Assembly: GCA_963819655.1 (NCBI GenBank)
Contig: CAWFXA010000002.1
Location: 1,376,001-1,440,000, forward strand
Direction: 5' to 3'
Source of the DNA: an uncultured Chloroflexia bacterium
GTDB lineage: Bacteria; Chloroflexota; Limnocylindria; Limnocylindrales; CSP1-4
Length of the DNA stretch: 64,000 bases
Part shown: positions 12,298 through 57,057 of the stretch, piece after piece
Position numbering within the stretch: position 1 is the first letter of the stretch
Layout: every line of letters begins with the position of its first letter
Notes under the pieces: model-generated
Seen by the model: only the letters and a program-made list of their open reading frames with translations
The model's database searches: none
Told to the model about the DNA's origin: nothing
Made by a program: the position numbers and the translations under genes

Positions 12298-12777
12298 CTA
12301 GGAAGTCCTAGGCACAGGTCCGGCATCGACGGCCTGCATAACCTCTCGGACCGCTTCCTTTGGGTCCGTGTGCTCCCAGAATCTAAGAATGGTCCACCCA
12401 TGAGCCCGCAATTTGTTTTCGGTGTCTATGTCTCGACGGCGATTGGCTTCGATCTTGGCTTGCCACCATTTCGAATTCGCCTTGGGAGATGACCCATGCT
12501 CTGGACATCCGTGCCAGAAGCATCCGTCGATAGAGATCGCAACCCTGCTGGACATGATCACGAAGTCCAGCCGACGTCGGGGTACGAAATCGAGGGTGAC
12601 CTGAGCCTCGACGGCTACGTCAGCACTGCTGAGCACTGACGCCCAAGCGATCTCCGGAGCAGTCCCACTCCGTCGCACAGCGAGCATCCTTGAGCGAGCA
12701 GCCTCCGACGACGCGCGTGGTCGCGCGTCTCGCTGAGGTCGTCGCCGCGGCTGCCGCGCGGACAGCCCTCTGGCCAT
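12298..12777 (-). CDS. vsr: Very short patch repair endonuclease (annotated ORF is fused to the upstream gene)
   Basis: RSRMLAVRRSGTAPE...DGCFWHGCPEH...KWWQAKIEANRRRD...GWTILRFWEH. Own ATG at 12777. Confidence 0.85.
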   Translation of the reverse strand: MARGLSARQPRRRPQRDARPRASSEAARSRMLAVRRSGTAPEIAWASVLSSADVAVEAQVTLDFVPRRRLDFVIMSSRVAISIDGCFWHGCPEHGSSPKANSKWWQAKIEANRRRDIDTENKLRAHGWTILRFWEHTDPKEAVREVMQAVDAGPVPRTS

Positions 12778-14739
12778 CAGAGCCCGCTCAAGAATGTTGG
12801 CGATCCGGGACAGACGGTCGTTGGCCGCAATGTAGTCGGCGTAACTCTCCTGAGACTCCTGGATTAGGGCGTCGTAGGTAATCCAGGAGGCGCCAATCGT
12901 TCGGAGGACATCGGTCACGGTTTTGAGATCGGCTCCCGTTGGAGGGCCACCTACAACAGCGATCAGCCGGATTTCTTGTGGCTCATTGGGGTATTTCTCT
13001 CGAAGCACCTTCGCAAGTGCCGAGCCATATTTGTTGAGTTGTTCGGAGAGGTCCCAGACCGTCGTTTTCGTGCCATAGCGCTTCAATTCGATCACGATGT
13101 TCGTCCCGGCCGCAGTGCGATATCGGATATCAATTCGGCCGGCGCGCTCGTCGGGGCTGAGCCTGTCCGTGACCTTTCTGAACTCCCTCATGACGCTCTG
13201 CTCTATACGAGCATTCGTGGATGCGCGCTCCCAAGAAGGATGTAACAGCCACAAGTGATCGAACAAGAAAGCCTGGAGCGCCCTTTCCTTGGCGTTGGCG
13301 TCGACTAAACCAGCGAAGCTCTCAATCACACCAAGTCGGCCGCGAACAATTTGGTGGTACTCAGCGGCCTCCAAGTCATCGATGGACAGAACCAGGCCTC
13401 GCAGAGCGTCGACCTCGAGGCGGTCGCCCAATTCGCCAGTCCGGATCAGGAGCTTCTGGAACTTGAGCTTTTCAAATCCCAGGATTCCGTACCTGTAGAG
13501 CTCGCGCCGCGCGTCGTCGTCCTGCTTGGGAAATGAGCCAATACGGCCGAACAAGTCTTTCGCGAAGCTCTGACTCCCCGCATCGAGCGTTTCGTACCAC
13601 TCAGTAACAACAGGATGCTCGAGAGCCTTGCCGAGAGCATCCTCCTTTCGCCATTGACCCCAAGCGTTCTCCACGCGCCTAAGGAGATCCGTCCTGACGA
13701 AGTTCCGCAGCGCCTGGTACCGAGGGTCGGTCTCTTTCAGGCGTTGTCTGTCGCTGGTCGCTATGTCGGGCTGGCCGTCCGAATCGACGAAGTCGGCTCG
13801 TATCTCGCCCATGAGATACTTGGTGTAAATGCCGCCCGCTCGGATGTCGGACAGGATGTCCTCCTGGACTAGCTTTCCCCAAGCAAGAATGGTCACGGCC
13901 GTGTTCTCGTCGTCGACACCACGTTGCTCGTCCAGGGTTCCTATCCAGCCCGTTACCTCAAGTCCAGTTGTGGGGTCAATGATTCCCGATATGCGCTCAG
14001 CCTTCTTGGCATTTGTGCACAGCCTTTCGTACGTGTCATCGACACGCCCGATTGACCAGAGGTACTCAACCTTAGGGAAGTAATCACGATCTCCGACACC
14101 GATTGCGCGCCCGTTGATTTGGACCTCGAATCGGTTTGACGGCCCAATGATGCTGAACCGCCTTGCCAGGCGGCGGCGAAGCGCAACCTCGGTAGCCGCA
14201 CCAAGGTTCAACCGCAGCTGCCGCAGGCGAAGCTCGGTACCCCTCTCCAGCCCAATTGAAGTAGGCGCGATCGGGGCAGGTCGGTAGGAGGTTTGACCCG
14301 CGGCAATTTGCGATTCGACGTCGGCCGTCCGGAGAATCAAACCCGCTCTGGCAATTCGAAATGACCTCCCGCGGCCGGAGCGCTTTGCGCTGCGGACCTC
14401 GATCTCGTTGGCGATCGCGAAGAGCGACAGCTTGCCAATACCTTTGCGACCCATGACATGCCGCTGGTACTTGGGCGTCAGCGCACCCTGGTTCGCCCTC
14501 CGGCGGTAACCGATCATCAGAAAACGGTCGTTCAGATCGGCCTCGGACATCCCATGTCCGTCATCCGTAATCGTGATGGATTGACGTGCCGTGTCGAGAA
14601 CAATGGTCACGAGAGTGGCATCGGCATCCCAGGCATTTGCGACCACCTCCGCCAAAACTGCGGGGATGTTGCTGTAGAGGTTCAGTCCAAGGTGCTCAAG
14701 CACATTCAGGCTTAGCCGCATCTCGTACGGCGAAATCAC
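12776..14739 (-). CDS. GHKL-ATPase-fused restriction endonuclease, BbrUII/HgiDII-like family
   Basis: LSLNVLEHLGLNLYSNIPAVLAEVVANAWDADA, DDGHGM, MGRKGIGKLSLF; C-terminal GRIDI...VVIELKR PD-(D/E)XK motif; adjacent to a C5 MTase. Confidence 0.8.
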
Positions 14740-15909
14740 GCGTCCGCGCCTTGGTTGAGGGCCACGAGGAGGGAGGTGGTCAGTGCCTCCGAAAGGAAGG
14801 GTGGAACCGCATTGCCAATGAGCCTAGAAAGAGAAGTGCGGTGCTCGACCTGTGAAAACGTCACAAAATCAGGGATGCACTGGAGTCGGGCGGCCTCATG
14901 CGGCGTCAAGGTTCTCGGCGCCTCGGGGTGGACATATCGACCTTGACCCATTGAGCCGAAGCCGGACGTGACGGTCTGCGCAGGGGCGGCCCATTCCAAC
15001 CGGCCGTACATACTTTTGTATGAGTGACTGCTGCGGTGGCAAGCGGGACGCAGTCGGTTAGGAAGATCCAATTCTCCGCTTAGGTCAAGCCACCGGATCC
15101 GCCGACGATTTGTATGAGAGACAGTGGCGGGTTCGTCCCTCCTTTCCGTTGAGGGAATTCCGGCCAGATCGCCGATTGCCCACCGCACCGTTCGTCGAAT
15201 CGTCACATTCCCTATCGAATCGAGCACCTTTTGTGGATCGATAGTTTCGACCCGCGAAGCCAACAACACGTGTCGACGCCGTGACTGGGGAACACCAACA
15301 TCGAGAAGTCGGATGACACGCTCTGCGACGGTGTATCCACTGCCCTTGAGAATTTGCGTCGTCCTGCCAATCGAATCGTGTGCATCGTGTACCACGGCCG
15401 GCACATTCTCGATGATGACAGCCCGGGGTTTGAGCACTAGCGCTGCTCGCGCCATTGCGACGTAGAGGCCGTTTCGTGGGTCATCACGTCGGGTGTGATT
15501 GTTTAGATCGGAGTGACCCTGACACGGTGGACCGCCGACGAGGAGATCCACTCGCCCGACGCGGTCTGCGAGCGCACGCTCGGTTTGTGTTTGCGGCTCC
15601 GTGCCTTGGCCAGGGAAGATTTCCTGAACAGACGTCTTCAGGACGGTGGCCGAGGGGAAGACGGATTTATAGACAGCGACAGCGTCTGGATCCAGGTCAA
15701 CTGCGAGGCGAGTATCAATGCCGGTTGCCATTCGGTTTGCTGCGCGGGCGACTCCAAGCGACAAGCCACCGCAACCACAGAAGAGGTCTACGAGGGCGAG
15801 CCGTTGAATGCCCTCGGTAAAGTCAGGAAGTCGATTTCACGAAGAAAGAGCCTGTCGAGTCGACAGGCTCTTCCTGATCAAACGGCAGCTCGAGCGCCGC
15901 TTCCATCAT
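14736..15909 (-). CDS. dcm: DNA (cytosine-5) methyltransferase, 5' end frameshifted near 15836
   Basis: Motif I LVDLFCGCGG lies upstream of the called TTG. GGPPCQGHS, IENVP, GVPQSRRR, RTLTPHEAARLQ and IGNAVPP are present. Removing one A from GTGAAAT restores starts at 15840/15909. Confidence 0.9.
15846..15872. promoter_or_regulatory. Perfect 27-nt palindrome containing GTCGAC
   Basis: AAGAGCCTGTCGA-G-TCGACAGGCTCTT. On the minus strand the stem runs into TTTCTTC. Confidence 0.55.
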
Positions 15910-15946: not shown

Positions 15947-19079
<3,133 letters not shown>

Positions 19080-19264
19080 TCTGCTGTCTCCTCACCTCAT
19101 CCGCGGTAGCTGCCGCACGGTCGTTGTCGTGTCGTTCGTCGAGGTCCCTGGGGCGGCTCGCCGTTGTGTCCACGGGGACGGCAAGAGCGTCAGGTCGGGC
19201 GTTCTCAAGCGATGATTGCGACTCTCGAACGATACGCTTCGAGGGGTCGAGAGTCAAGCCCTAA

Positions 19265-19313
19265 ACACAAGATGTAGTGGTCGTGCTGCGTGGCCGACCG
19301 CTAGATGTGGTGG
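19265..19313. promoter_or_regulatory. Tandem NrdR boxes
   Basis: ACACAAGATGTAGTGG (19265-19280) and CCGCTAGATGTGGTGG (19298-19313) match acaCwAtATaTwGtgt, are 33 bp apart, and lie upstream of nrdJ. Confidence 0.85.
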
Positions 19314-19319
19314 TTTGGC

Positions 19320-19426
19320 CATTTCCACGCACGATCGTACCTGGTCCACGTTCCGCGGCGGGTTGTCCACGTGCGGGTGGTGCCGTGTCCACGGTGCGTG
19401 GGCGGGTTGTGCACTGGGTTTCCACC
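19320..19426 (+). promoter_or_regulatory. Helically phased DnaA-box-like array
   Basis: TCCAC/TGCAC cores at 19324, 19345, 19366, 19388, 19410 and 19421, including TTGTCCACG. Confidence 0.5.
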
Positions 19427-19505
19427 GTACCGTAACAGAACATGTGTGCGGTTTTGAGCGGTTCGCGGCTCGGGCGCGGCGGATCCACCGGGCCGCGGTG
19501 GCCCG

Positions 19506-19547
19506 GTGCCCGCGGCCCGGCCCGACGTGCCCGCGGCCCGGCCCGAC
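19506..19547 (+). repeat. 21-bp tandem duplication
   Basis: GTGCCCGCGGCCCGGCCCGAC x2. Confidence 0.85.
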
Positions 19548-19557
19548 GTCCGCGAGT

Positions 19558-19725
19558 CCGCCAGATACTCGCCGGGGGAGTCTTCGGCGGCCTTCGTGGC
19601 CGCTTGAGGCTTCCGATACGGGATGCGCGTGCACGCGGAGCACGCCGCGGCGCTTGGGATCGGCCAATCCGACCCCCGATGGGCCCAATTCCGCGCCCAA
19701 GACTCCGGGGGCGAGTAATTGGCGG
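19558..19725. repeat. Family A inverted-repeat doublet (REPIN/MITE-like), 168 nt
   Basis: CCGCCAGATACTCGCCGGGGGAGTCTTCGGCG (19558-19589) and inverted copy CCGCCAATTACTCGCCCCCGGAGTCTTGGGCG (19725-19694). Confidence 0.85.
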
Positions 19726-19753
19726 GTAAGAGCCCCGGCTCACTATCGGGCAG

Positions 19754-20478
19754 ATGGAAGACATGCGGTTCGGAGCCACGATCCGGGCGGTACGCATCAA
19801 GCGCGGCTGGCGCCAGACTGACCTGGCCGCGAAGGCGGGAGTCTCGCAGGCCACGGTCTGGCGAGCGGAACGCGGTCACATCCCAGAGATGACCTTGGCC
19901 GCGATCCGCCAAGCTGGCGGCCGCACTCGAGATCCGCGTCGAGCTGCTGCCGCGCGGCCGCGGCGCCGACCTCGATCGCCTCCTCAACGCGCGGCACTCG
20001 GCATTGCACGAGTCATTCGTTCGAGCCATCGCGCACGACTTCCCGGAGTGGGAGATGGCGTCCGAGGTGTCGTTCGCGATCTGGGCTGAGCGAGGCGTGA
20101 TCGACCTGCTCTTGTGGCACCCGGGCCGGCGGGCACTGCTGATCATCGAGTTCAAGACCGAGCTCGTCGACGTCGGTGAACTGCTGGGCACGATGGATCG
20201 TCGGCGGCGGCTCGCGCACGAGATCGCCCAGCAACGTGGCTGGGTCCCGAGGATCCGTTTCGACCTGGGTCGTCCTCGCCGCGTCACGCACGAACGAGAG
20301 GCGGATCGCCGAACACCGCACGGTGCTTCGGAATGCCTACCCGGCCGACGGTCGCAGGATGCGGCGATGGCTTCGGGATCCGGAAGGCCCGATCGCAGCT
20401 CTCACGACTTGGGCGGAGACGACTCGAGGATCGACCGCTCCGGTCCGGCGAGTTCGGCGGGCCGCGCGGAACACGTGA
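19754..20478 (+). CDS. XRE-family HTH fused to PD-(D/E)XK nuclease-like domain (two frameshifts, about 19910 and 20252)
   Basis: IRAVRIKRGWRQTDLAAKAGVSQATVWRAERG, then EVSFAIWAERGVIDLLLWHPGRRALLIIEFKT. Colinear with the intact paralogue at 44520-45266. Confidence 0.8.
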
Positions 20479-20489
20479 TGGTCATAAGG

Positions 20490-20679
20490 CCGTCAAATAC
20501 TCGCCCCGGGAGTCTTCGGCGCGCAGTCGGGGCGCAGTCGGCGCGCAGTCGGGGCGTTCGCGGCTAACAGGGAGCGTGACTCGTGCGTGAGTTGAGCCCT
20601 GGCAGGCCCGTGAACCGTGGCTGGGGGGTTCACCTCGCCAGATTCCGCGCCTAAGACTCCCAGGATGGGTATCTGGCGG
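20490..20679. repeat. Family A inverted-repeat doublet, 190 nt
   Basis: CCGTCAAATACTCGCCCCGGGAGTCTTCGGCG (20490-20521) and inverted CCGCCAGATACCCATCCTGGGAGTCTTAGGCG (20679-20648); internal GCGCAGTCGG x3. Confidence 0.85.
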
Positions 20680-20801
20680 AGTTTGAGGCCGCGCGGCGGA
20701 GCCCGAGGCCGCAGAGCGGGACCGCGGAGCGGCCGGAGGCGCGCGGAGTCCGAGGCCGCAGGCGGCCGCGGGTACGGGCGTCCGATCCAGCGTCGCCCGG
20801 A

Positions 20802-21116
20802 TCAATCGAGGTGGAAGACCTCCTCGAGACGTTGGTGGAACCCCGTCGCAGGATCGGTCAGCGGGTCGATCAATGCCGCCATCTCGGCTTGCCAGCGGGC
20901 GTTGATCGGGCTGGCGGCCATCGACGCCCGGAACGCCGCGAAGTCGTCGACGACGAGGTAGGCGAACAAGTCGTCCCCCCGGATGAAGATCGAGTAGTCG
21001 CGGCAGCCAGCGGCCTTCAGTGCCGCGAGCATCTCCGGCCAGACCGCCGCGTGGCGCCGGCGGTATTCGGCTTCCTGGCCAGGCAGGAGCCGCATCGTGA
21101 ACCCCACTCGTTCCAT
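20802..21116 (-). CDS. rhaM: L-rhamnose mutarotase
   Basis: MERVGFTMRLLPGQEAEYRRRHAAVWPEM...LEEVFHLD; GGAGGAGG RBS. Confidence 0.92.
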   Translation of the reverse strand: MERVGFTMRLLPGQEAEYRRRHAAVWPEMLAALKAAGCRDYSIFIRGDDLFAYLVVDDFAAFRASMAASPINARWQAEMAALIDPLTDPATGFHQRLEEVFHLD

Positions 21117-21204
21117 CGATCCTCCTCCCGAATCGGTGAGCCCCGGAAGCAGACGCCTCCGGGGCTCGGACTGCCGTTGGAGGACGGCAGGCGGCGAAGA
21201 CGAT

Positions 21205-22300: not shown

Positions 22301-23360
22301 TCATGGGCTGACGACTTCACCAGGGCCGGCCGAGCCGGCCGACGTTCGTCGGCCTCCGCGAGCTCGATCCATGGCTGACTTGGCCTGATGAGCAAGGTTG
22401 GGGATGACCACCGAGACGATCAGAAGCAAGCCCACGGAGATGCTCTGGATCTCGGCCGAGATGTTCGTCAGGCGCAGGACGTTGCCCAGGATCGCGAGGA
22501 CCAATGCGGCCAGCGCGACGCCGGGGATCGTGCCCCGGCCGCCGAAGATGTTCACGCCGCCCAGCAGGACAACGGTGACCACGGTCAGGGTCATGCCCTG
22601 CCCGATATCCGCCCGGGCGCTGGCGAAGCGGGCGGTCAGGATGACCCCTGCGAGCGCCGACACCACGCCAGATAGGACGAACAACCACAGTTTGATGCGC
22701 GCCACTCGGACACCCGAGTAGCGCGCAGCGGCGGCGTTCTTGCCGACCGCGTAGATCTGGCGCCCGATCCAGGTGCCGTGCAGCACGACCCCCAGGACCA
22801 GGGCCAGGCCGAGGAAGACCAGGAAAGGCCACGGGATCGGCGTGCCCGGTACGGTGCCGAAGCCGAACGATGTGAACGATTCGGGGAAGCCGGTGACGCC
22901 CTTGGGTCCCAGGATCCCGAGCGCAAGCCCACGGAACAGCGCGAGCGTGCCCAGCGTGACGACCAGGGACGGGAGCCCGAAGCGCGTAACGAGCAGGCCG
23001 TTGAGCACGCCGCCGAGCGGCGCCGACGAGCAGCACGACTGGGATCCCGACCTCGAGCGGGATACCCGCCGCGAACAGGAAGCCGAGCAGGGCGCAGGAC
23101 AGGCCCGCCATCGATTCGACGGACAGGTCGATCTCGCCGGCGATGATGATCAGGGTCATCGCGAGGGCGATGATCGCCACCTCGATCACGGCCGTGACCA
23201 GGTTCGTGAAGTTACGCGGGGTCAGGAAGACCGGCGAGACAGTCGTACCCACCCAGATCAGCCCGAGGACGAGCACGATCAACAGCGTCTCCCACCGGAC
23301 GAGCGAGCTCAGGACCGAGCGCCCTCGGGCGCTCACAGGGGTGGTCACGGAGGCGGTCAT
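22301..23360 (-). CDS. rhaQ: Rhamnose ABC transporter permease (frameshift about 23015)
   Basis: IIAGEIDLSVES in one frame; NGLLVTRFGLPSLVVTLGT...LLGGVNIFGGRG in the next. Confidence 0.88.
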
Positions 23361-24394
23361 CGGGCACGCGCCCGCGCTGTCGAGCGCTGGAGCCGGCGCA
23401 GGAGGTATCCGTCGAGAGCGACCGCGGCCAGGATCACAATGCCGTAGATCGCCAGCAGCCAGAACTGCGAGAAGCGCAGCAGGACGAGGGCGTTGGAGAT
23501 GAAGCCCAGGAAGACCGCGCCCAGTCCCGCCCCGACGACCGTGCCGGACCCGCCGAAGATGGCGACCCCGCCGACGACCACCGCGGCCACGACCTGGAGA
23601 GTGACGCCCGTGGCGGATGTCGCGTTGATCGTCCCGAACTCCATACCCCACAGGACCCCGGCCAGCCCGGCCAGCAACCCACACGCCGAGAAAGCGACGA
23701 AGGTGACCAGGCCCGCCCGGATGCCGAGGATCTCGGCGGCCTCCGGGTTGCTGCCGACCGCATAGATCTGCCGGCCGAAGCGGGTCTGGCGAAGGACGAT
23801 CGCGGCGACCACCACGATGACCAGCGCGATCACGAAGAAGAGCGGGATCCCGACGATATTCGCCCGCGCGAGGGCCGTGTAGCCCTCCGGGAGGTCCGTC
23901 AGCGTGACCTGCTTGCCGCCCGCGAGGAGGAAGACGATTCCCCGGTAGATCGACAGCGTGCCCAGGGTTGCGACGATCGCCGGCACCCGCAGCGCACCTA
24001 CGACGATCCCATTGATCATGCCGAGGATCAGTCCGAGGAGGAGACCGGCGGCGATCGCCACGGGCATGTCGAGCAGCCGTTGCGCGAGCACATCGGCCAC
24101 GACGAAGGCGACGAGACCCATGGTCGACTCGACCGAGAGGTCGACGTTGCGGGTCAGCACGACCACTGCCTGGCCAACCGCCGCGATGCCGATGATCGAG
24201 GCCAGGACCGTGACCTGGGTCAGGTTCGAGATCGACAGGAACTGCGGCGCCTGGATGGCGACGAACGCGCCCAGAACGAGCATGACGACGAGCAGGCTCA
24301 GCTCGCGCTGGCGGGCGACGACCGCGAGGATCCCGCCAAGCGGCCCGGAGGGTGGGGCCGGCGCGGCCATGGCGACCTCAGACATGGACGCCAT
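23357..24394 (-). CDS. rhaP: Rhamnose ABC transporter permease
   Basis: LTRNVDLSVES, VPAIVATLGT, VVVGGVAIFGGSG. Confidence 0.88.
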   Translation of the reverse strand: MASMSEVAMAAPAPPSGPLGGILAVVARQRELSLLVVMLVLGAFVAIQAPQFLSISNLTQVTVLASIIGIAAVGQAVVVLTRNVDLSVESTMGLVAFVVADVLAQRLLDMPVAIAAGLLLGLILGMINGIVVGALRVPAIVATLGTLSIYRGIVFLLAGGKQVTLTDLPEGYTALARANIVGIPLFFVIALVIVVVAAIVLRQTRFGRQIYAVGSNPEAAEILGIRAGLVTFVAFSACGLLAGLAGVLWGMEFGTINATSATGVTLQVVAAVVVGGVAIFGGSGTVVGAGLGAVFLGFISNALVLLRFSQFWLLAIYGIVILAAVALDGYLLRRLQRSTARARAR

Positions 24395-26845: not shown

Positions 26846-26900
26846 ACAGTAGACGGTAAGCGAATGCAATGTCAAGAAAGCAATTGAAATCATATGAAAC
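26846..26900. promoter_or_regulatory. Divergent rha promoter region with 10-bp-spaced GAAA direct repeats
   Basis: Minus-strand TTGACA (26875-26870)-18 nt-TACTGT. GAAA at 26876, 26886 and 26896, as expected for a DeoR-type operator. Confidence 0.55.
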
Positions 26901-27030
26901 ATGTGGCAGGCTAGCGATGCGCACACGCCAGCCCGCTCCGGCCGGTGGGGAACGTTGCCCAGCTCCTCCGGCGCAACGCCGTCGCTTCGTCGGCCGGGGC
27001 GGGCACTACCATCGGCCGACGGAGGCACAG

Positions 27031-28196
27031 GTGACCAGCAACCCAACCGTTGTCGCGGCCCTCAGAGCACAGCGGATCGAGTTGCCCTCGTGGGCGTTCG
27101 GCAACTCCGGCACGCGTTTCAAGGTCTTTGCCCAGAAAGGCGTGCCGCGGACGCCGCAGGAGAAGGTCGCCGACGCCGCGCAGGTCAATCGCTTCACGGG
27201 CGTGGCGCCGAGTGTCGCTCTGCACATCCCGTGGGATCGCGTCGACGATTACGGCGAGCTGGCCCGACATGCGTCGGACGTCGGCGTCCGGCTGGGCACG
27301 ATCAACTCGAATGTCTTCCAGGACGACGACTACATGCTGGGCAGCGTCTGCAACCCGGATGCGGGCGTGCGTCGCAAGGCGCTCGACCACCTGCTTTCGT
27401 GCATCGACGTCATGGACGCCACGGGGTCACGCGACCTGAAGCTGTGGTTCTCGGACGGCACCAACTACCCGGGCCAGGACGACATGCGCGCCCGCCAGGA
27501 CCGGCTTGCCGAGGCGCTCGCGGCCGTCCACGCCCGGCTGGGGCCGGACCAGCGGATGCTCCTCGAATACAAGTTCTTCGAGCCGTCGTTCTACACGATG
27601 GACGTACCTGACTGGGGGACCGCCTACATCCAGTGCGTCGCTGCGGGGCCGAAGGCCGCGGTCGTCGTCGATACCGGCCACCACGCCCCGGGCACGAACA
27701 TCGAGTTCATCGTCGCGTCGCTGCTCCGGGCGGGCGCCTCGGCGGCTTCGACTTCAACTCCCGGTTCTACGCCGATGACGATCTCATGGTCGGGTCGGCC
27801 GATCCATTCCAGCTGTTCCGGATCATGCACGAGGTCGTGCAGGCGGGTGGCCTCGGCGAGGAGGCCGGCGTGGCGTTCATGCTCGACCAGTGCCACAACA
27901 TCGAACCGAAGATCCCAGGCCAGATCCGATCCGTGATGAACGTCCAGGAGGCCACCGCGAAGGCTCTCCTGGTGGATGCCGAAGCCCTCGCCGACATGCA
28001 GGGACGTGGCGACGTGCTCGGTGCCAACGCCGTCCTGATGGATGCGTACGACACAGACGTCCGACCGTTGCTCGCCGAGGTGCGCACCGGACTGGGGCTC
28101 GATCCCGACCCGCTCGCCGCCTATGCGAGGTCAGGCTACGGGGAGCGGATCGTGGCTGAACGTGTCGGTGGTCAGCAGGCGGGCTGGGGCGCATGA
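27031..28196 (+). CDS. rhaI: L-rhamnose isomerase (frameshift about 27737)
   Basis: IELPSWAFGNSGTRFKVF, LHIPWD, LEYKFFEP, DTGHH, FDFNSRFYADDDL, DQCHNIE. Confidence 0.93.
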
Positions 28197-31754: not shown

Positions 31755-31821
31755 GTCGAGGGCTGAGGGCCGGAACGTCTCGCCGCCGCACTCCCTCGAC
31801 ATGCGCCGGGTGCATACGAAC
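31755..31821 (+). repeat. Family C hairpin repeat, copy 1
   Basis: GTCGAGGGCTGAGGG...CACTCCCTCGACATGCGCCGGGTGCATACGAAC. Confidence 0.75.
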
Positions 31822-31978
31822 TGTGAGGAGAGGGCTACCGACAAGCCCTTGCGCGCGCATTCACGTGGTGCATGACGATGGAGTGGCCGCGTGACCCACA
31901 GGGGCCGTGTCGCCGGGCGACGGTATCATCGGCGCCCGACTGCGCGAAGGTCACCCTCGGACCCGAGAGGAGCACGCG

Positions 31979-32403: not shown

Positions 32404-32469
32404 GTCGAGGGTGAGGGAGGGAAGCATCCCCCGGCACACTCCCTCGACATGCGCCGGGCGCATACGAAC
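32404..32469 (+). repeat. Family C hairpin repeat, copy 2
   Basis: GTCGAGGGTGAGGG...CACTCCCTCGACATGCGCCGGGCGCATACGAAC; 32/33 identical to the 3' part of copy 1. Confidence 0.75.
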
Positions 32470-32586
32470 AAAGGAGAAGCGGGGCCGCGGGAGGCGGCGC
32501 TGCCGCGCGCCACAGCGTGCCCACATTCACCTGGTGAATGACGAGGGAGTGCTCTGACGAGCAGCGCGCCCGGTGCGGCAAACCGA

Positions 32587-38147: not shown

Positions 38148-39785
38148 GTGACCGAGGCGATCCTCTCGAGGGTGATGCTCGCGTTCGAGGGGGAGGTGCT
38201 GCCGGAGTCGGTGGCGCGTCGGTTGGCTGGTGGACCGGTGGCGGGGGTGACGTTGTTCCGGCACCACAACGTGCGGACGCCGGGACAGGTCCGGGGGCTG
38301 ACCGATGCGGTGCAGGCGGCGGCGCGTGCCGGTTCTCCGGCTGGTGGCGTCGCCGGTTCCACGGCTCGTGGCGTCGCTGGCTCCCCATCGTCGCCGATCC
38401 TCGTCGGCGCCGACCAGGAGGGCGGGCAGTTCATCGCTCTGGGCGACGGCTCGACGCCGTTCGCCGGCAACATGGCCCTCGGCGCGGTCGACGACGAGGT
38501 GCTGACCGAGCGCGTGGGTCGCGCGATCGGCGCCGAGGCGCGGGCGATGGGCGTCAACGTCGTTTACGCGCCGGTGCTCGACATCGCGTCGAACCCTCCG
38601 AACCCGGCGCTCGGGATCAGGGCGTTCGGCGACGATCCGGCACTCGTCGCGCGGCACGGGGCGGCGATGGTGCGCGGTCTCCAGGCGGCCGGTGTGGCGG
38701 CAACTGTCAAGCACGCCCCGGGGGCTGGGGAGGCCGCCGCCGATCCGCACCATCGGCTCGCCACGGTCGGCGCCTCGCGCGCGACCCTTGACACGCGCGA
38801 GTTCGTGCCGTTCCGCGCGGCGTTCGCGGCGGGAGCCCGAATGGCGATGTCGGCGCATGTCGCATTGCCCGCCGTGACGGGTCGCGATGACCTGCCCTCG
38901 ACGTTGTCGCGGGCCGTGATGACCGACCTGCTGCGGCGCGATCTGGGCTTCGAGGGCGTGACGATCTCCGATGCGCTCGACATGGGCGCGCTCGCCCAGG
39001 GTCCCGACCAGGTGGTCGACGTGGTCGCGGCCGTGCGGGCCGGCGTCGACCTGCTGTTGTGCGGCGCGGATCCGGCCGCCATCGAGCGGATCGAGCGGAC
39101 GCTCGTCCAGGCGGCGCACCGCGGGCTGTTCGACGAGGCCGAGGTGGCCGGCACGGAACGTCGTGTTGCAGCTCTCCGGTCGTGGCTCGGCTCGGCCGGT
39201 CCAGCGCCGGATCTCGCCGTCGTCGGTGGCGCGGACCATCGGGCGCTCGCCGCGGAGCTCGGCGCGCGATCGATCACGCTGGTGCGCGATCTGGCCGGGC
39301 TCCTGCCGGTTCGCTGGGGCGCATACCGGCGCGTTCTCGCCGTCATGCCCCGACCGTCGGACCTCACCCCGGCCGACACCTCGTCGACGGTCGCGCCGAC
39401 CCTTGCGGCCGCCCTCCGTCGCTACCATGCGGACGTGGACGAGGTGGTGGTCGAGCCCGAGTCGAACGCGGGGGCTATCGCCGCGATCCGTGACCGCGCA
39501 CAGGCCGCGGATCTCGCGGTCGTCGGCACCATCGACGGGCACCGGCTCCGTTCCCAGATGGCGCTCGTCGACGCCGTCGCGTCGACCGCCACGCCGACGA
39601 TCGCGGTCGCGCTTCGTGGGCCGTGGGACGTGGCGGCCTATCCGGCGGGCGTGACGGCCCTGGCGACCTACTCGATCCTGCCGGGCTCCCTCGAGGCGCT
39701 GGCTGCGGTCCTCGCCGGGGAGGGCGTGGCGAGCGGCCGACTGCCGGTCAGCGTGGGGCAAGCCGCTGTCCTCGCCGATGCCTGA
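38148..39785 (+). CDS. GH3 beta-N-acetylhexosaminidase-like protein
   Basis: ADQEGG, YAPVLD, KHAPGAG...DPH, ISDALDM; C-terminal GH3 domain. Confidence 0.85.
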   Translation: MTEAILSRVMLAFEGEVLPESVARRLAGGPVAGVTLFRHHNVRTPGQVRGLTDAVQAAARAGSPAGGVAGSTARGVAGSPSSPILVGADQEGGQFIALGDGSTPFAGNMALGAVDDEVLTERVGRAIGAEARAMGVNVVYAPVLDIASNPPNPALGIRAFGDDPALVARHGAAMVRGLQAAGVAATVKHAPGAGEAAADPHHRLATVGASRATLDTREFVPFRAAFAAGARMAMSAHVALPAVTGRDDLPSTLSRAVMTDLLRRDLGFEGVTISDALDMGALAQGPDQVVDVVAAVRAGVDLLLCGADPAAIERIERTLVQAAHRGLFDEAEVAGTERRVAALRSWLGSAGPAPDLAVVGGADHRALAAELGARSITLVRDLAGLLPVRWGAYRRVLAVMPRPSDLTPADTSSTVAPTLAAALRRYHADVDEVVVEPESNAGAIAAIRDRAQAADLAVVGTIDGHRLRSQMALVDAVASTATPTIAVALRGPWDVAAYPAGVTALATYSILPGSLEALAAVLAGEGVASGRLPVSVGQAAVLADA

Positions 39786-39794
39786 CCGGATACA

Positions 39795-39962
39795 CCGCCA
39801 GATACTCGCCCGGGGAGTCTTGGGCAGGGTCCACGGCTCGTCACGGCCATGGCGGGCAGGTCGCGGAGATGATTCGTGCACGGCGACACGGCGAAACGAT
39901 CCGAATCGCGCTCGATCGGGCTGGATTGCTCGCCTAAGACTCCCACGGCGAGTTTTTGGCGG
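39795..39962. repeat. Solo family A inverted-repeat doublet, 168 nt
   Basis: CCGCCAGATACTCGCCCGGGGAGTCTTGGGCA (39795-39826) and inverted CCGCCAAAAACTCGCCGTGGGAGTCTTAGGCG (39962-39931). Confidence 0.85.
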
Positions 39963-39989
39963 AGTAGAGCGATCTGGCGGGCAACTCGC

Positions 39990-44407: not shown

Positions 44408-44519
44408 TCGCGCCTCGACCGGGCACATCAGCCGAAGGCCTTTTTCCGCCAGCTATCGCTGCACCGTTGCGCAGTCGGCGATAAGTCCGGGTTGAGCCTC
44501 GCTCGCCAGAATCGCATCG

Positions 44520-45266
44520 ATGGACTCGATGCAGCGGTGCGGCGCCACATTTCGGGCCGTCCGGATCAAGCGGGGTTGGCGACAGATCGATGTCGCGGCG
44601 CGAGCTGGGGTGAACCGCTCGGTCGTTTCGGCTATCGAGCGCGGCCATCTCGAGAACGTGTCGATCGGCACGCTCCTCGAGATCGCGCGCGCCCTGGACA
44701 TCCAGGTCACGTTCGGTACGCGGTGGCGAGCCGGGGACCTCGACCGACTCGTCAGCGGTCGACATTCTCGGCTTCATGAAGCCGTCGGGAGGTGGTTCGC
44801 CACCGCATTGCCCGACTGGATCCTCGCCCCGGAAGTCTCGTTCTCGTTCTTTGGGGAGCGGGGCGTCATCGACATCCTGGCCTGGCACCCCGGCCGGCGC
44901 GCCCTTCTGGTGATCGAGCTCAAGACCGATCTCGCGGATGTGAACGAGCTGATCGGCACCATGGACCGGCGGCGGCGGCTCGCGTGGGACATCGCCAAGG
45001 AGCGAGGATGGGAGCCGCTCACCGTCTCGAGCTGGGTGCTCGTGGCCGGTGGACGGACGAATCGCGCTCGGATCTCCGCGCACAGAACGCTGCTCCGCAC
45101 GGCGTTTCCGGTCGATGGACGGACCGTCGCCGGTTGGTTACGACGGCCAGATCGGGATATCCACGCGCTCTCGCTCTGGGACAGGGTGCGTGATGACGGC
45201 GGTTCCGGCGACTTTGCGGCCCGGCATCGGGTGCGACGACGGTCCGCGGCGTCTGTCCGACCATGA
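44520..45266 (+). CDS. XRE-family HTH fused to PD-(D/E)XK nuclease-like domain (intact paralogue)
   Basis: FRAVRIKRGWRQIDVAARAGVNRSVVSAIERG; EVSFSFFGERGVIDILAWHPGRRALLVIELKT. Confidence 0.85.
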   Translation: MDSMQRCGATFRAVRIKRGWRQIDVAARAGVNRSVVSAIERGHLENVSIGTLLEIARALDIQVTFGTRWRAGDLDRLVSGRHSRLHEAVGRWFATALPDWILAPEVSFSFFGERGVIDILAWHPGRRALLVIELKTDLADVNELIGTMDRRRRLAWDIAKERGWEPLTVSSWVLVAGGRTNRARISAHRTLLRTAFPVDGRTVAGWLRRPDRDIHALSLWDRVRDDGGSGDFAARHRVRRRSAASVRP

Positions 45267-45443
45267 ACTACGCGGATGGCAGCGACCTTAGGTCTTGCAG
45301 GAGTCGGGTCGACGCCGCTCTGTGCCCCGCCGACCGGCCATAAGGCGGCCATCGATGCGCGATGTGCATGGTCGACGGCGTTGCAACCGTCGCCGCGGGC
45401 CTGGAGCCCGACATTAGGTCGCTGTGATGCGCGTACTTCATGG
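45261..45443. repeat. Family B element, 183 nt, three related 32-33-nt units
   Basis: CCATGAACTACGCGGATGGCAGCGACCTTAGG (+, 45261-45292); inverted units at 45371-45339 and 45443-45412 (CCATGAAGTACGCGCATCACAGCGACCTAATG). Confidence 0.8.
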
Positions 45444-45569
45444 TCGCGGGGAGTTGCGCGGGCCGGGGAGGGCCGGGCGGGTCGGGGAGGGCCGGGCGCC
45501 TTGGTCGTCGGGAGGCGGGTCGGGGGTCGTGCGCCGGGCGGGCCTCGGGCCTCCGGGCGGGGCACGCGG

Positions 45570-56671: not shown

Positions 56672-56742
56672 CTGGTCGTGCCGGGTCGGGCATTGTGCGG
56701 GCCGCGGCCGCCGCTGCTCATCCTGCGGGCCGCGGCCGCTCA

Positions 56743-56924
56743 TCATGAACAACGCGCATGAGGACGGCCTTATGACAGGCGACGGCTCGGTCTGACGCCC
56801 GTTCGGCACCTCGAACGTGCATATCGCGCCTAGCGAGCGACCTTAGGCGGATCGTGACGCCCCGCTCGGGCCTGAAACAGACGAGAACGGGCCACAAGGT
56901 TGCCCTCATCCGCATTCTTCATGG
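56743..56924. repeat. Solo family B element, 182 nt
   Basis: TCATGAACAACGCGCATGAGGACGGCCTTATG (+, 56743-56774), middle unit (+, 56815-56847), inverted CCATGAAGAATGCGGATGAGGGCAACCTTGTG (56924-56893). Confidence 0.8.
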
Positions 56925-57057
56925 TCGGGAGGATCGGGAGGATCGGGAGGGCCGGGAGGGCGAGCCCGGATTCCGAGAGGCCCGCGAGGGCCGGGAGGGG
57001 GATCGCCGGGATGGTCGAGAAGGCCGCGTTGGTGGCGACGGCCGCGAGGGCTCGGGA
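56922..57057 (+). repeat. Degenerate 9-bp tandem repeat (GGATCGGGA/GGGCCGGGA)
   Basis: ggtcgggaggatcgggaggatcgggagggccgggagggcg... Confidence 0.7.

Follow-up and report, generated by a model that had tools for sequence, protein, structure and literature searches.

Why should a gene for a restriction-fold nuclease lie between two doublets of one and the same inverted repeat? The question is raised by 64 000 nt of DNA (referred to here as the window, with positions counted from its first letter) from a member of the class Limnocylindria, which are uncultured bacteria of soil and sediment. In REPIN–RAYT systems and TIRtrons, an enzyme gene is flanked by cognate inverted doublets (available portions of PMC3116915 and PMC3733652). 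Even for REPIN–RAYT it is an open question how short dispersed repeats come to spread and what lets their enzymes persist, and many repeat families have no known enzyme (PMC3733652, in the portion available). A preliminary description of the window proposed a REPIN/RAYT-like layout with a different enzyme, and the analysis supports this: cognate doublets flank the gene, and the enzyme combines an XRE helix-turn-helix (HTH) with a PD-(D/E)XK domain.

A nuclease gene between two doublets

Four units of 32 nt, termed R1, form two inward-facing doublets of 168 and 190 nt around the gene, leaving 28 nt to its ATG and 11 nt from its stop codon (Table 1). These coordinates agree with the preliminary description, as do a solo R1 doublet and a paralogue with a doublet of another family, both present in the window. 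The neighbours of the gene are nrdJ and rhaM.

Table 1. Positions of the repeats, genes and promoters in the window
Feature	Position	Strand	Remarks
R1 unit 1	19558-19589	+	left arm of the doublet 5' of the nuclease gene
R1 unit 2	19694-19725	-	right arm of the upstream doublet; outer end overlaps promoter box
Competence-type promoter (predicted), window gene	19712-19747	+	two direct-repeat boxes 11 bp apart and weak -10; score 22.4
XRE-HTH + PD-(D/E)XK nuclease gene	19754-20478	+	~240 aa; one extra base near each of 19913 and 20254
R1 unit 3	20490-20521	+	left arm of the doublet 3' of the nuclease gene
R1 unit 4	20648-20679	-	closes the downstream doublet
Two solo doublets	31789-31885, 32437-32551		family flanking another paralogue, G000:C2:963484
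Insertion of ~211 nt	39776-39986		operon junction; holds solo R1 doublet; absent in G134 and G108
Solo R1 doublet	39795-39962
Competence-type promoter (predicted), paralogue	44478-44513	+	score 32.1
Intact paralogue gene	44520-45266	+	248 aa
R2 doublet	45258-45446		window paralogue's own family
Solo R2 doublet	56742-56925		G134 region ~255 nt shorter here

The DNA between the doublets does code for an XRE-HTH/nuclease protein, but not in a single open frame, an extra base being present at each of two places. At locus L066 the orthologue has an intact frame, the same four units and the same nrdJ–rhaM junction (the downstream spacer of the window exceeds its counterpart there by 22 nt, or two helical turns), and the extra bases are missing from short-read contigs of related strains, that at 19913 in two of four runs and that at 20254 in all four. 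Assembly error is the likeliest cause and probably explains the frameshifts, the alternative being a lesion private to the strain. Genes for NrdJ (16087–19079), a sugar permease (22301–23684) and a rhamnose-isomerase-like protein (26869–27936) also look frameshifted, which is consistent with indel errors of assembly. An error specific to GATC was considered as the cause; the other apparent frameshifts in the window sit in other contexts.

Each unit was at first credited with a small ACTC/GAGT hairpin. The core is present, but the imperfect palindrome extends over the whole unit, and the folding of single units is weak (z from −1.9 to +0.1 over eight strands); a whole doublet can fold (z −3.25). 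A search of Rfam for structured RNA across 19000–21200 gave no match at E ≤ 1.

Upstream of nrdJ (19270–19450) lie conserved boxes, several TCCAC repeats and a GAAC-N4-GTTC-like site, which resemble NrdR sites, DnaA boxes and an SOS box, respectively; all are kept in relatives without the nuclease gene. Elsewhere in the window (12298–15764), an operon encodes an 813-aa protein, a GHKL ATPase that ends in a Vsr-like domain, together with a C5 cytosine methyltransferase; the fusion of ATPase and Vsr-like domain may be a read-through of two genes.

The nuclease family and its competence-type promoter

The XRE HTH and the E..D..ExK motif proposed earlier are backed by the fold of the intact window paralogue and by conserved residues. 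An alignment-based structure model of this paralogue (pLDDT 81.9) was used, and a single-sequence model of the L066 protein (pLDDT 34.8) was left out. Structure comparison likens the modelled N-terminal domain to the XRE HTH of HipB and C.AhdI (Z 11.3) and the C-terminal domain to NucS-like 2vld_B (Z 9.4, rmsd 3.1, 104 residues) and, with Z of 8.3–8.5, to Card1, Can2 and McrBC. As modelled, the C-terminal domain has the restriction-like fold and the E...D...ExK residues of the PD-(D/E)XK superfamily. Residues E105, D118, E133 and K135 of the paralogue are invariant in all 24 aligned homologues, and 92 of 99 homologues have an intact catalytic motif; among the 12 full-length paralogues of the host genome (G000), seven keep ExK and five lack its lysine.

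Pfam matches were HTH_3/HTH_31 and a weak YhcG_C PDDEXK, and no Pfam family matched the nuclease domain above its cut-off. The Foldseek output was nearly all HTH matches, and the nuclease fold rests on the structure comparison given above. Matches to the PADLOC Control_protein model are confined to the HTH, those to PDC-S02 are weak (E about 0.006–0.01 over ~35 residues), and the ESM Atlas returned hypothetical HTH clusters only, with scores <0.9. Profiles of DUF559 and MTES_1575 had no match in G000 at E ≤ 0.001.

The family is large, with 2328 matches among 8000 candidates and 613 clusters at 50% identity (E ≤ 1e-30). A family gene was found in 106 of 131 genomes of the host genus, including all 24 of good quality; in a sample of the phylum it was found in 8 of 121 genomes, all within the class Limnocylindria, and records of related loci are nearly all from Limnocylindria or Chloroflexota. 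Besides its 12 paralogues, G000 carries two HTH-only relatives. A per-residue scan for specificity (top positions 182, 177, 45, 102, 37 and 32) was confounded by clade and set aside.

A promoter box precedes these genes. It is a pair of direct repeats with a distance of 11 bp (roughly GATAAG-N5-GGTGAG) and is followed by a weak -10, which lies some 7 nt ahead of the start codon. In the window gene the ATG follows the promoter by 6 nt, and the transcript is probably leaderless. With a matrix trained on the promoters of 97 nuclease genes, 23 sites in G000 score ≥18, versus two in a shuffled genome. At this score the box also precedes comEA-comEC, comM-dprA, comF, radC, recJ and two uvrD-like genes; yraN, a tlyA-recN-xer operon and topA have boxes scoring 16–17, and parA, a MalT-like regulator and several unnamed genes have the box too. 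The assignments of ComEC, ComM/YifB, DprA, RadC, RecJ, RecN, TlyA and TopA are above curated cut-offs; those of ComEA, ComF, YraN and the UvrD-like proteins are below them. Altogether the box marks 25 of the 3170 genes of G000, nine of the 12 paralogues among them. It is conserved in relatives at comEA (24/24) and comM (18/25), with no case on the opposite strand and none at nrdJ (0/27).

The circularity of a matrix trained on the nuclease genes is avoided by the reverse test. When the matrix is built from comM promoters only, 80 of the 97 nuclease promoters score ≥8; the same score is reached by 3 of the 97 when these are reverse-complemented and by 9 of 600 genes drawn at random. Nine genes from another family of the class were held out: six have the box and three a doublet. 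Because the box is common to DNA-uptake genes, the nuclease genes are probably expressed during competence. On sequence grounds, the direct-repeat box defines a predicted competence regulon of ~25 genes in the Limnocylindria (for example at L192:112-150, L201, L202 and L203). Candidate regulators are the MalT-like gene at C2:608689 and an HTH-only gene at C2:885264 whose product has 87 aa, both of which have the box themselves. The best-scoring box of all (G000:C1:624126, L198) precedes a possible ORF of 27 codons on the strand opposite the last part of an ABC transporter operon.

Pairing, phasing and mobility of the doublets

Within G000, 17 copies of R1 are recovered at ≤6 and at ≤8 mismatches, an 18th by a degenerate pattern, and three locally shuffled genomes gave 0, 0 and 1 matches. 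The 18 units pair up into nine inward-facing doublets, of which two flank the gene and seven are spread over six further sites; all nine are intergenic and seven are 167–169 nt long. Each G000 paralogue is associated with a different repeat, eight of the 12 with copies elsewhere and two with their own doublet only; two have none.

The preliminary description could have been refuted by repeats no commoner beside these genes than elsewhere, and the opposite is found. In a neutral scan for inverted repeats within 300 nt of genes, a doublet lies near 8 of the 12 paralogues of G000 versus 200 of 3138 other called genes (p 1e-7); one of these eight is a probable chance match in coding DNA, and with a stricter score the counts are 5 of 12 and 102 of 3138. 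At 79 loci of other genomes, a doublet is present at 52 of 147 gene ends (22/73 upstream, 30/74 downstream), compared with 15 of 376 control gene ends. Complete loci have a doublet on at least one side in 40 of 68 cases, on both sides in seven, and none detectable in 28. Downstream doublets often start inside the last codons of the nuclease gene, at about +650 to +670 (many of loci L031–L109), so that the doublet encodes a variable C-terminal tail.

Units from 45 loci belong to one 33-nt superfamily, whose matrix, seeded on R1, fits 94 of 140 arms. Complementary changes are in excess along the unit's axis, on which the best four of 435 column pairs all lie; G-T and A-C mismatches occur as often as the columns predict, with no strand bias. 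Repeat and protein diverge together, as a comparison of the kind called for in the preliminary description indicates. Units differ by 8.0 mismatches within a locus and by 9.7 to 18.4 between loci, and the more two proteins differ, the more their units do (rho 0.35, 45 loci). Kinship matters in such a comparison, since 56 of 99 loci adjoin nrdJ. At the nrdJ site, host and nuclease distances are uncorrelated (rho 0.04, 40 loci), and hosts 3–7% apart often have nucleases 35–50% apart. Among the 22 loci at this site that have units, unit distance goes with nuclease distance once the host is controlled for (partial r 0.38, p 0.001), but not with host distance (−0.16), the host marker being 330 nt only and linked to the site.

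Solo copies go with the variant resident in a genome. The variant of G126 occurs in two of 30 genomes, those with sister proteins (clades were read from a quick tree), both beside the gene and at solo sites; those of G137 and G108 occur in seven and five of 30 genomes, respectively, with most copies in the genome for which each is named. Orphan units also exist: six of R1 in G134, seven of R1 in G024 and five of the G108 variant in G021, and no close cognate gene was found in these genomes. Moreover, a 93-aa HTH-only gene without the competence box (G000:C2:1489338-1489616, L196) is flanked on both sides by a palindrome family that ranks among the most abundant in the genome, with the core TGATGCGCATGGGCCGCATCA, and its repeats co-diverge in G134 and G108 (orthologues L318 and L319); the G108 protein is 65% identical and its repeats have changed too. 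The earlier proposal that the nuclease maintains or spreads its cognate repeats is thus favoured by the pairing, the co-divergence and the empty sites described below, but strict dependence on the nuclease is not, given the HTH-only gene and the orphan doublets.

Of the unit pairs, 74 face inward and none outward, and unit start-to-start distances cluster at 104, about 115, 125, 136, 146 and 157. Phased doublets were detected with the matrix seeded on R1, within one subfamily group. For 58 spacer-independent doublets the best period is 10.6 bp (R 0.74 at 10.5), which none of 2000 smooth nulls reached; when each 70%-identity protein cluster contributes a single doublet (n = 24), p is about 6e-5. 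In G000, R1 spacings are 125, 134–136 and 157, a second family has spacings of 132–165 in steps of ~10.5, and R2 has 174, 184–185 and 195 (20 pairs, of which five nested ones and two others, at 157 and 204, were left out); two further small families are less regular. In Paramecium, an approximately 10-bp periodicity in the length of internal eliminated sequences (IES) has been read as looping of dsDNA between protein-bound ends (PMC3408717, in the part available); these elements are eukaryotic, have a DDE enzyme (PiggyMac) and serve here solely as a precedent for phasing. By the same reasoning, the helical phasing of the doublets (~10.5 bp) points to looping of double-stranded DNA and not to an ssDNA hairpin of the REPIN type, and the hairpin analogy drawn at the outset is probably wrong in detail.

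The doublets are insertion polymorphisms. The preliminary description had asked for empty sites in relatives, and these exist: in G134 and G108 the two genes at the solo R1 site are directly joined, while at the same site G074 and G024 carry R1 doublets and G021 another variant. Elsewhere a tandem pair of doublets is an insertion of 424 nt with a 213-nt period, and another solo site is one of 290 nt; both are empty in G134. Insertion lengths vary (about 211, 424, 290 and 255 nt), and their ends are not fixed, lying 13–64 nt past the units. No clean target duplication was seen at these insertions, although at one site the stop/start junction is repeated in degenerate form, and for G000:C1:414686 none of five relatives matched both flanks. 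At the nrdJ site, 22 of 27 genomes (a set chosen partly for having one) hold a family gene, from several clades; the other five are without it, and G134 keeps only a remnant unit. Inspection by eye of the neighbours of the six solo sites showed no transposase. The preliminary description could also have been refuted by a RAYT/IS200-605 transposase flanked by the same repeat; such an enzyme was considered as the mobiliser and rejected, PF01797 having no match in G000, which is 91% complete.

Other repeats of G000 may be recorded here. Five inverted doublets of AACTCCC-like heptamer repeats, of a kind associated with four-helix-bundle genes, form one cluster at G000:C2:10668-36753. A GTAG-bearing cluster lies at C2:7793-7987, though no Y1 transposase was found. 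A further dispersed family of ~50 nt, with the core CCTCGGGCCGATGGCG, occupies about 15 sites (e.g. C2:538284 and C3:363529) and could be tied to no paralogue. Palindrome arrays of TGACC-N3-GGTCA and of GTCAC-N3-GTGAC occur at several loci each, with copies beside the paralogues G000:C2:1528758 and C2:76660.

A proposed partnership in natural transformation

The likeness to REPIN–RAYT and TIRtrons extends from the single-copy enzyme gene with cognate flanking doublets to solo intergenic doublets, empty sites, a spacer conserved better in length than in sequence, and several enzyme–repeat pairs per genome (PMC3116915 and PMC3733652, in the portions available). The enzyme is different, however, being HUH/Y1 in REPIN–RAYT and XRE-HTH plus PD-(D/E)XK here. 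The GTAG/CGTC tag of REPINs is present in only 2 of 18 R1 units; REPINs number hundreds per genome and these doublets tens. In the present system, moreover, the spacing is helically phased and the gene has a competence-type promoter. In their short length, terminal inverted repeats and empty sites the doublets also resemble MITEs.

A second relative in kind is Ssn–NTS, in which SsnA and its repeats modulate transformation in Neisseria (PMC11893778, available text). Here, too, a non-transposase nuclease has its own co-varying flanking repeats and a predicted link to natural transformation. Ssn, however, is a single-domain GIY-YIG protein (cd10448), whereas the present proteins have two domains, an HTH of the dsDNA-binding type and another nuclease fold; and Ssn–NTS has the SRM where the present system has phased doublets, the SRM consensus having no match on either strand of the window gene's two flanks. 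YraN and CoiA are PD-(D/E)XK ssDNA nucleases of transformation that act as partners of a helicase (ComM or RadA) and resolve D-loops, and also tie this fold to competence; their account mentions no flanking repeats, whereas many paralogues are found here, each with an HTH and cognate repeats (PMC13663708, in the part available). The host has a separate yraN-like gene, below curated cut-off, with the same promoter box. Fusions of C proteins with REases in PvuII-type R–M systems share an N-terminal C-protein-like XRE HTH, a restriction-fold nuclease and operator-like sites near the promoter, and come with a methyltransferase (PMC3850674, available portion). The sites of the present family, in contrast, are dispersed mobile doublets, and a search of 99 loci with one C5-MTase query gave no match. 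No description of the nuclease family or the promoter box, and no paper using the name Limnocylindria, was found in a literature search confined largely to papers free of subscription and to main texts of the Ssn and REP surveys, whose supplements could list such genes; the accessible part of a repeat-mining preprint (10.64898/2026.09.22.753630) makes no mention of such a system. The system works like REPIN–RAYT and Ssn–NTS but belongs to neither. These comparisons suggest a third kind of partnership between repeats and an enzyme, evolved independently of the other two and probably acting during natural transformation.

How might it act? The reading that we prefer, with a probability of about 0.5, is that of a competence-induced, site-specific looping nuclease that keeps and spreads its cognate doublets via host recombination. 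Expression of the nuclease would begin along with that of the natural-competence genes. The XRE-HTH, dimeric or in a higher oligomer, would read a cognate, imperfectly symmetric dsDNA site of ~33 bp, and two inward-facing sites a whole number of helical turns apart (104–157 bp) would be joined in a loop, allowing the PD-(D/E)XK domain to nick or cut near the doublet. PD-(D/E)XK enzymes are not known to have strand-transfer chemistry, so that insertion would need host steps: the recombination and repair functions expected to be active at the same time (DprA, ComM, RecJ, UvrD and RecN) would copy the doublet to new gene junctions or re-insert it there. A LigD-like gene is also present in the host. 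Host recombination would further exchange gene-plus-doublet cassettes whole at hot spots, the nrdJ promoter being one, while every paralogue retained its own repeat family. Several observations sit awkwardly with this reading. The HTH-only gene and the orphan doublets weigh against strict nuclease dependence. Against the reading as a whole stand the homologues without a detectable doublet, the small number of loci with one on both sides (7 of 68) and the paralogues without the ExK lysine; insertion lengths vary, and a clean target duplication was not seen.

The competence promoter would also suit a host tool resembling SsnA, which cuts incoming ssDNA at cognate hairpins and so tunes the integration of donor DNA (self versus non-self), the spread of repeats being a by-product. 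SsnA/NTS (PMC11893778) and YraN/CoiA (PMC13663708) are precedents as far as their available text goes, the arms of the unit covary about its axis, and the whole doublet folds. Helical phasing would be unexpected of an ssDNA hairpin, though, single units fold weakly, the mismatch counts show no strand bias and the XRE-HTH resembles dsDNA-binding repressors; we regard this as unlikely. Somewhat less likely again is that the HTH alone matters, with the doublets as looped operators or architectural sites moved by host recombination and the nuclease domain in some other job, e.g. structure-specific trimming in transformation. Repressor loops fit the phasing just as well, the promoter-proximal unit overlaps the promoter box, orphan doublets persist, and the HTH-only gene at G000:C2:1489338 has its abundant repeat family, with both changed in G108. 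But solo doublets sit beside unrelated genes and within narrow gaps of operons where close relatives have none, and so do not make up a conserved regulon; many doublets are 3' of the gene or overlap its 3' end, and the catalytic residues have been kept in nearly all homologues.

Selfish defence or homing fares worse and we consider it improbable. The protein made in competence would guard its gene and doublets against incoming empty alleles, or cut the recipient and favour replacement by the cassette, as an addiction or as erosion of hot spots that drives rapid change of specificity. The different subfamilies at one nrdJ site in close hosts speak for it, as do up to 12 diverged paralogues per genome and the competence promoter. 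Yet no methyltransferase-like partner was found with the C5-MTase query, the five chosen genomes that lack the gene at nrdJ have lost it without evident trace, and retention in every good-quality genome of the genus makes the family look domesticated. The preferred looping nuclease shares with these three alternatives one assumption, namely that the protein would recognise its cognate doublet in some form. Coincidence does not share it: MITE-like repeats mobilised by an unrelated transposase would gather in permissive space around a dispensable regulator gene. Genes and doublets do both prefer gene junctions, and the transposase profile search covered Y1 only; but the distinct family of each paralogue, the co-divergence, the specificity of the variants, the lack of Y1_Tnp in G000 and the lack of a visible transposase beside the six solo sites leave this reading largely refuted and very improbable indeed.

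If the partnership is of the kind proposed, it adds a third enzyme class to repeat biology, with one specificity per paralogue and hundreds of diverged pairs (the 613 clusters), and its predicted requirement for two dsDNA sites is testable in vitro. The family would supply small nucleases (240 aa) with long natural recognition sites, and the shared box offers a predicted competence regulon for an uncultured and abundant class of soil bacteria. The dynamics of repeats would be tied to natural transformation, a tie so far shown for SsnA in Neisseria. A bolder version is possible but tentative, namely a new class of transformation-coupled mobile DNA in which some 12 competence-induced looping endonucleases per genome, each with a phased two-site address, cut the resident chromosome at tens of programmed sites while DNA is being taken up and move doublets without transposase chemistry. 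If true, it would give each lineage its own recombination hot spots, enzyme and address co-diverging as the hot spots turn over.
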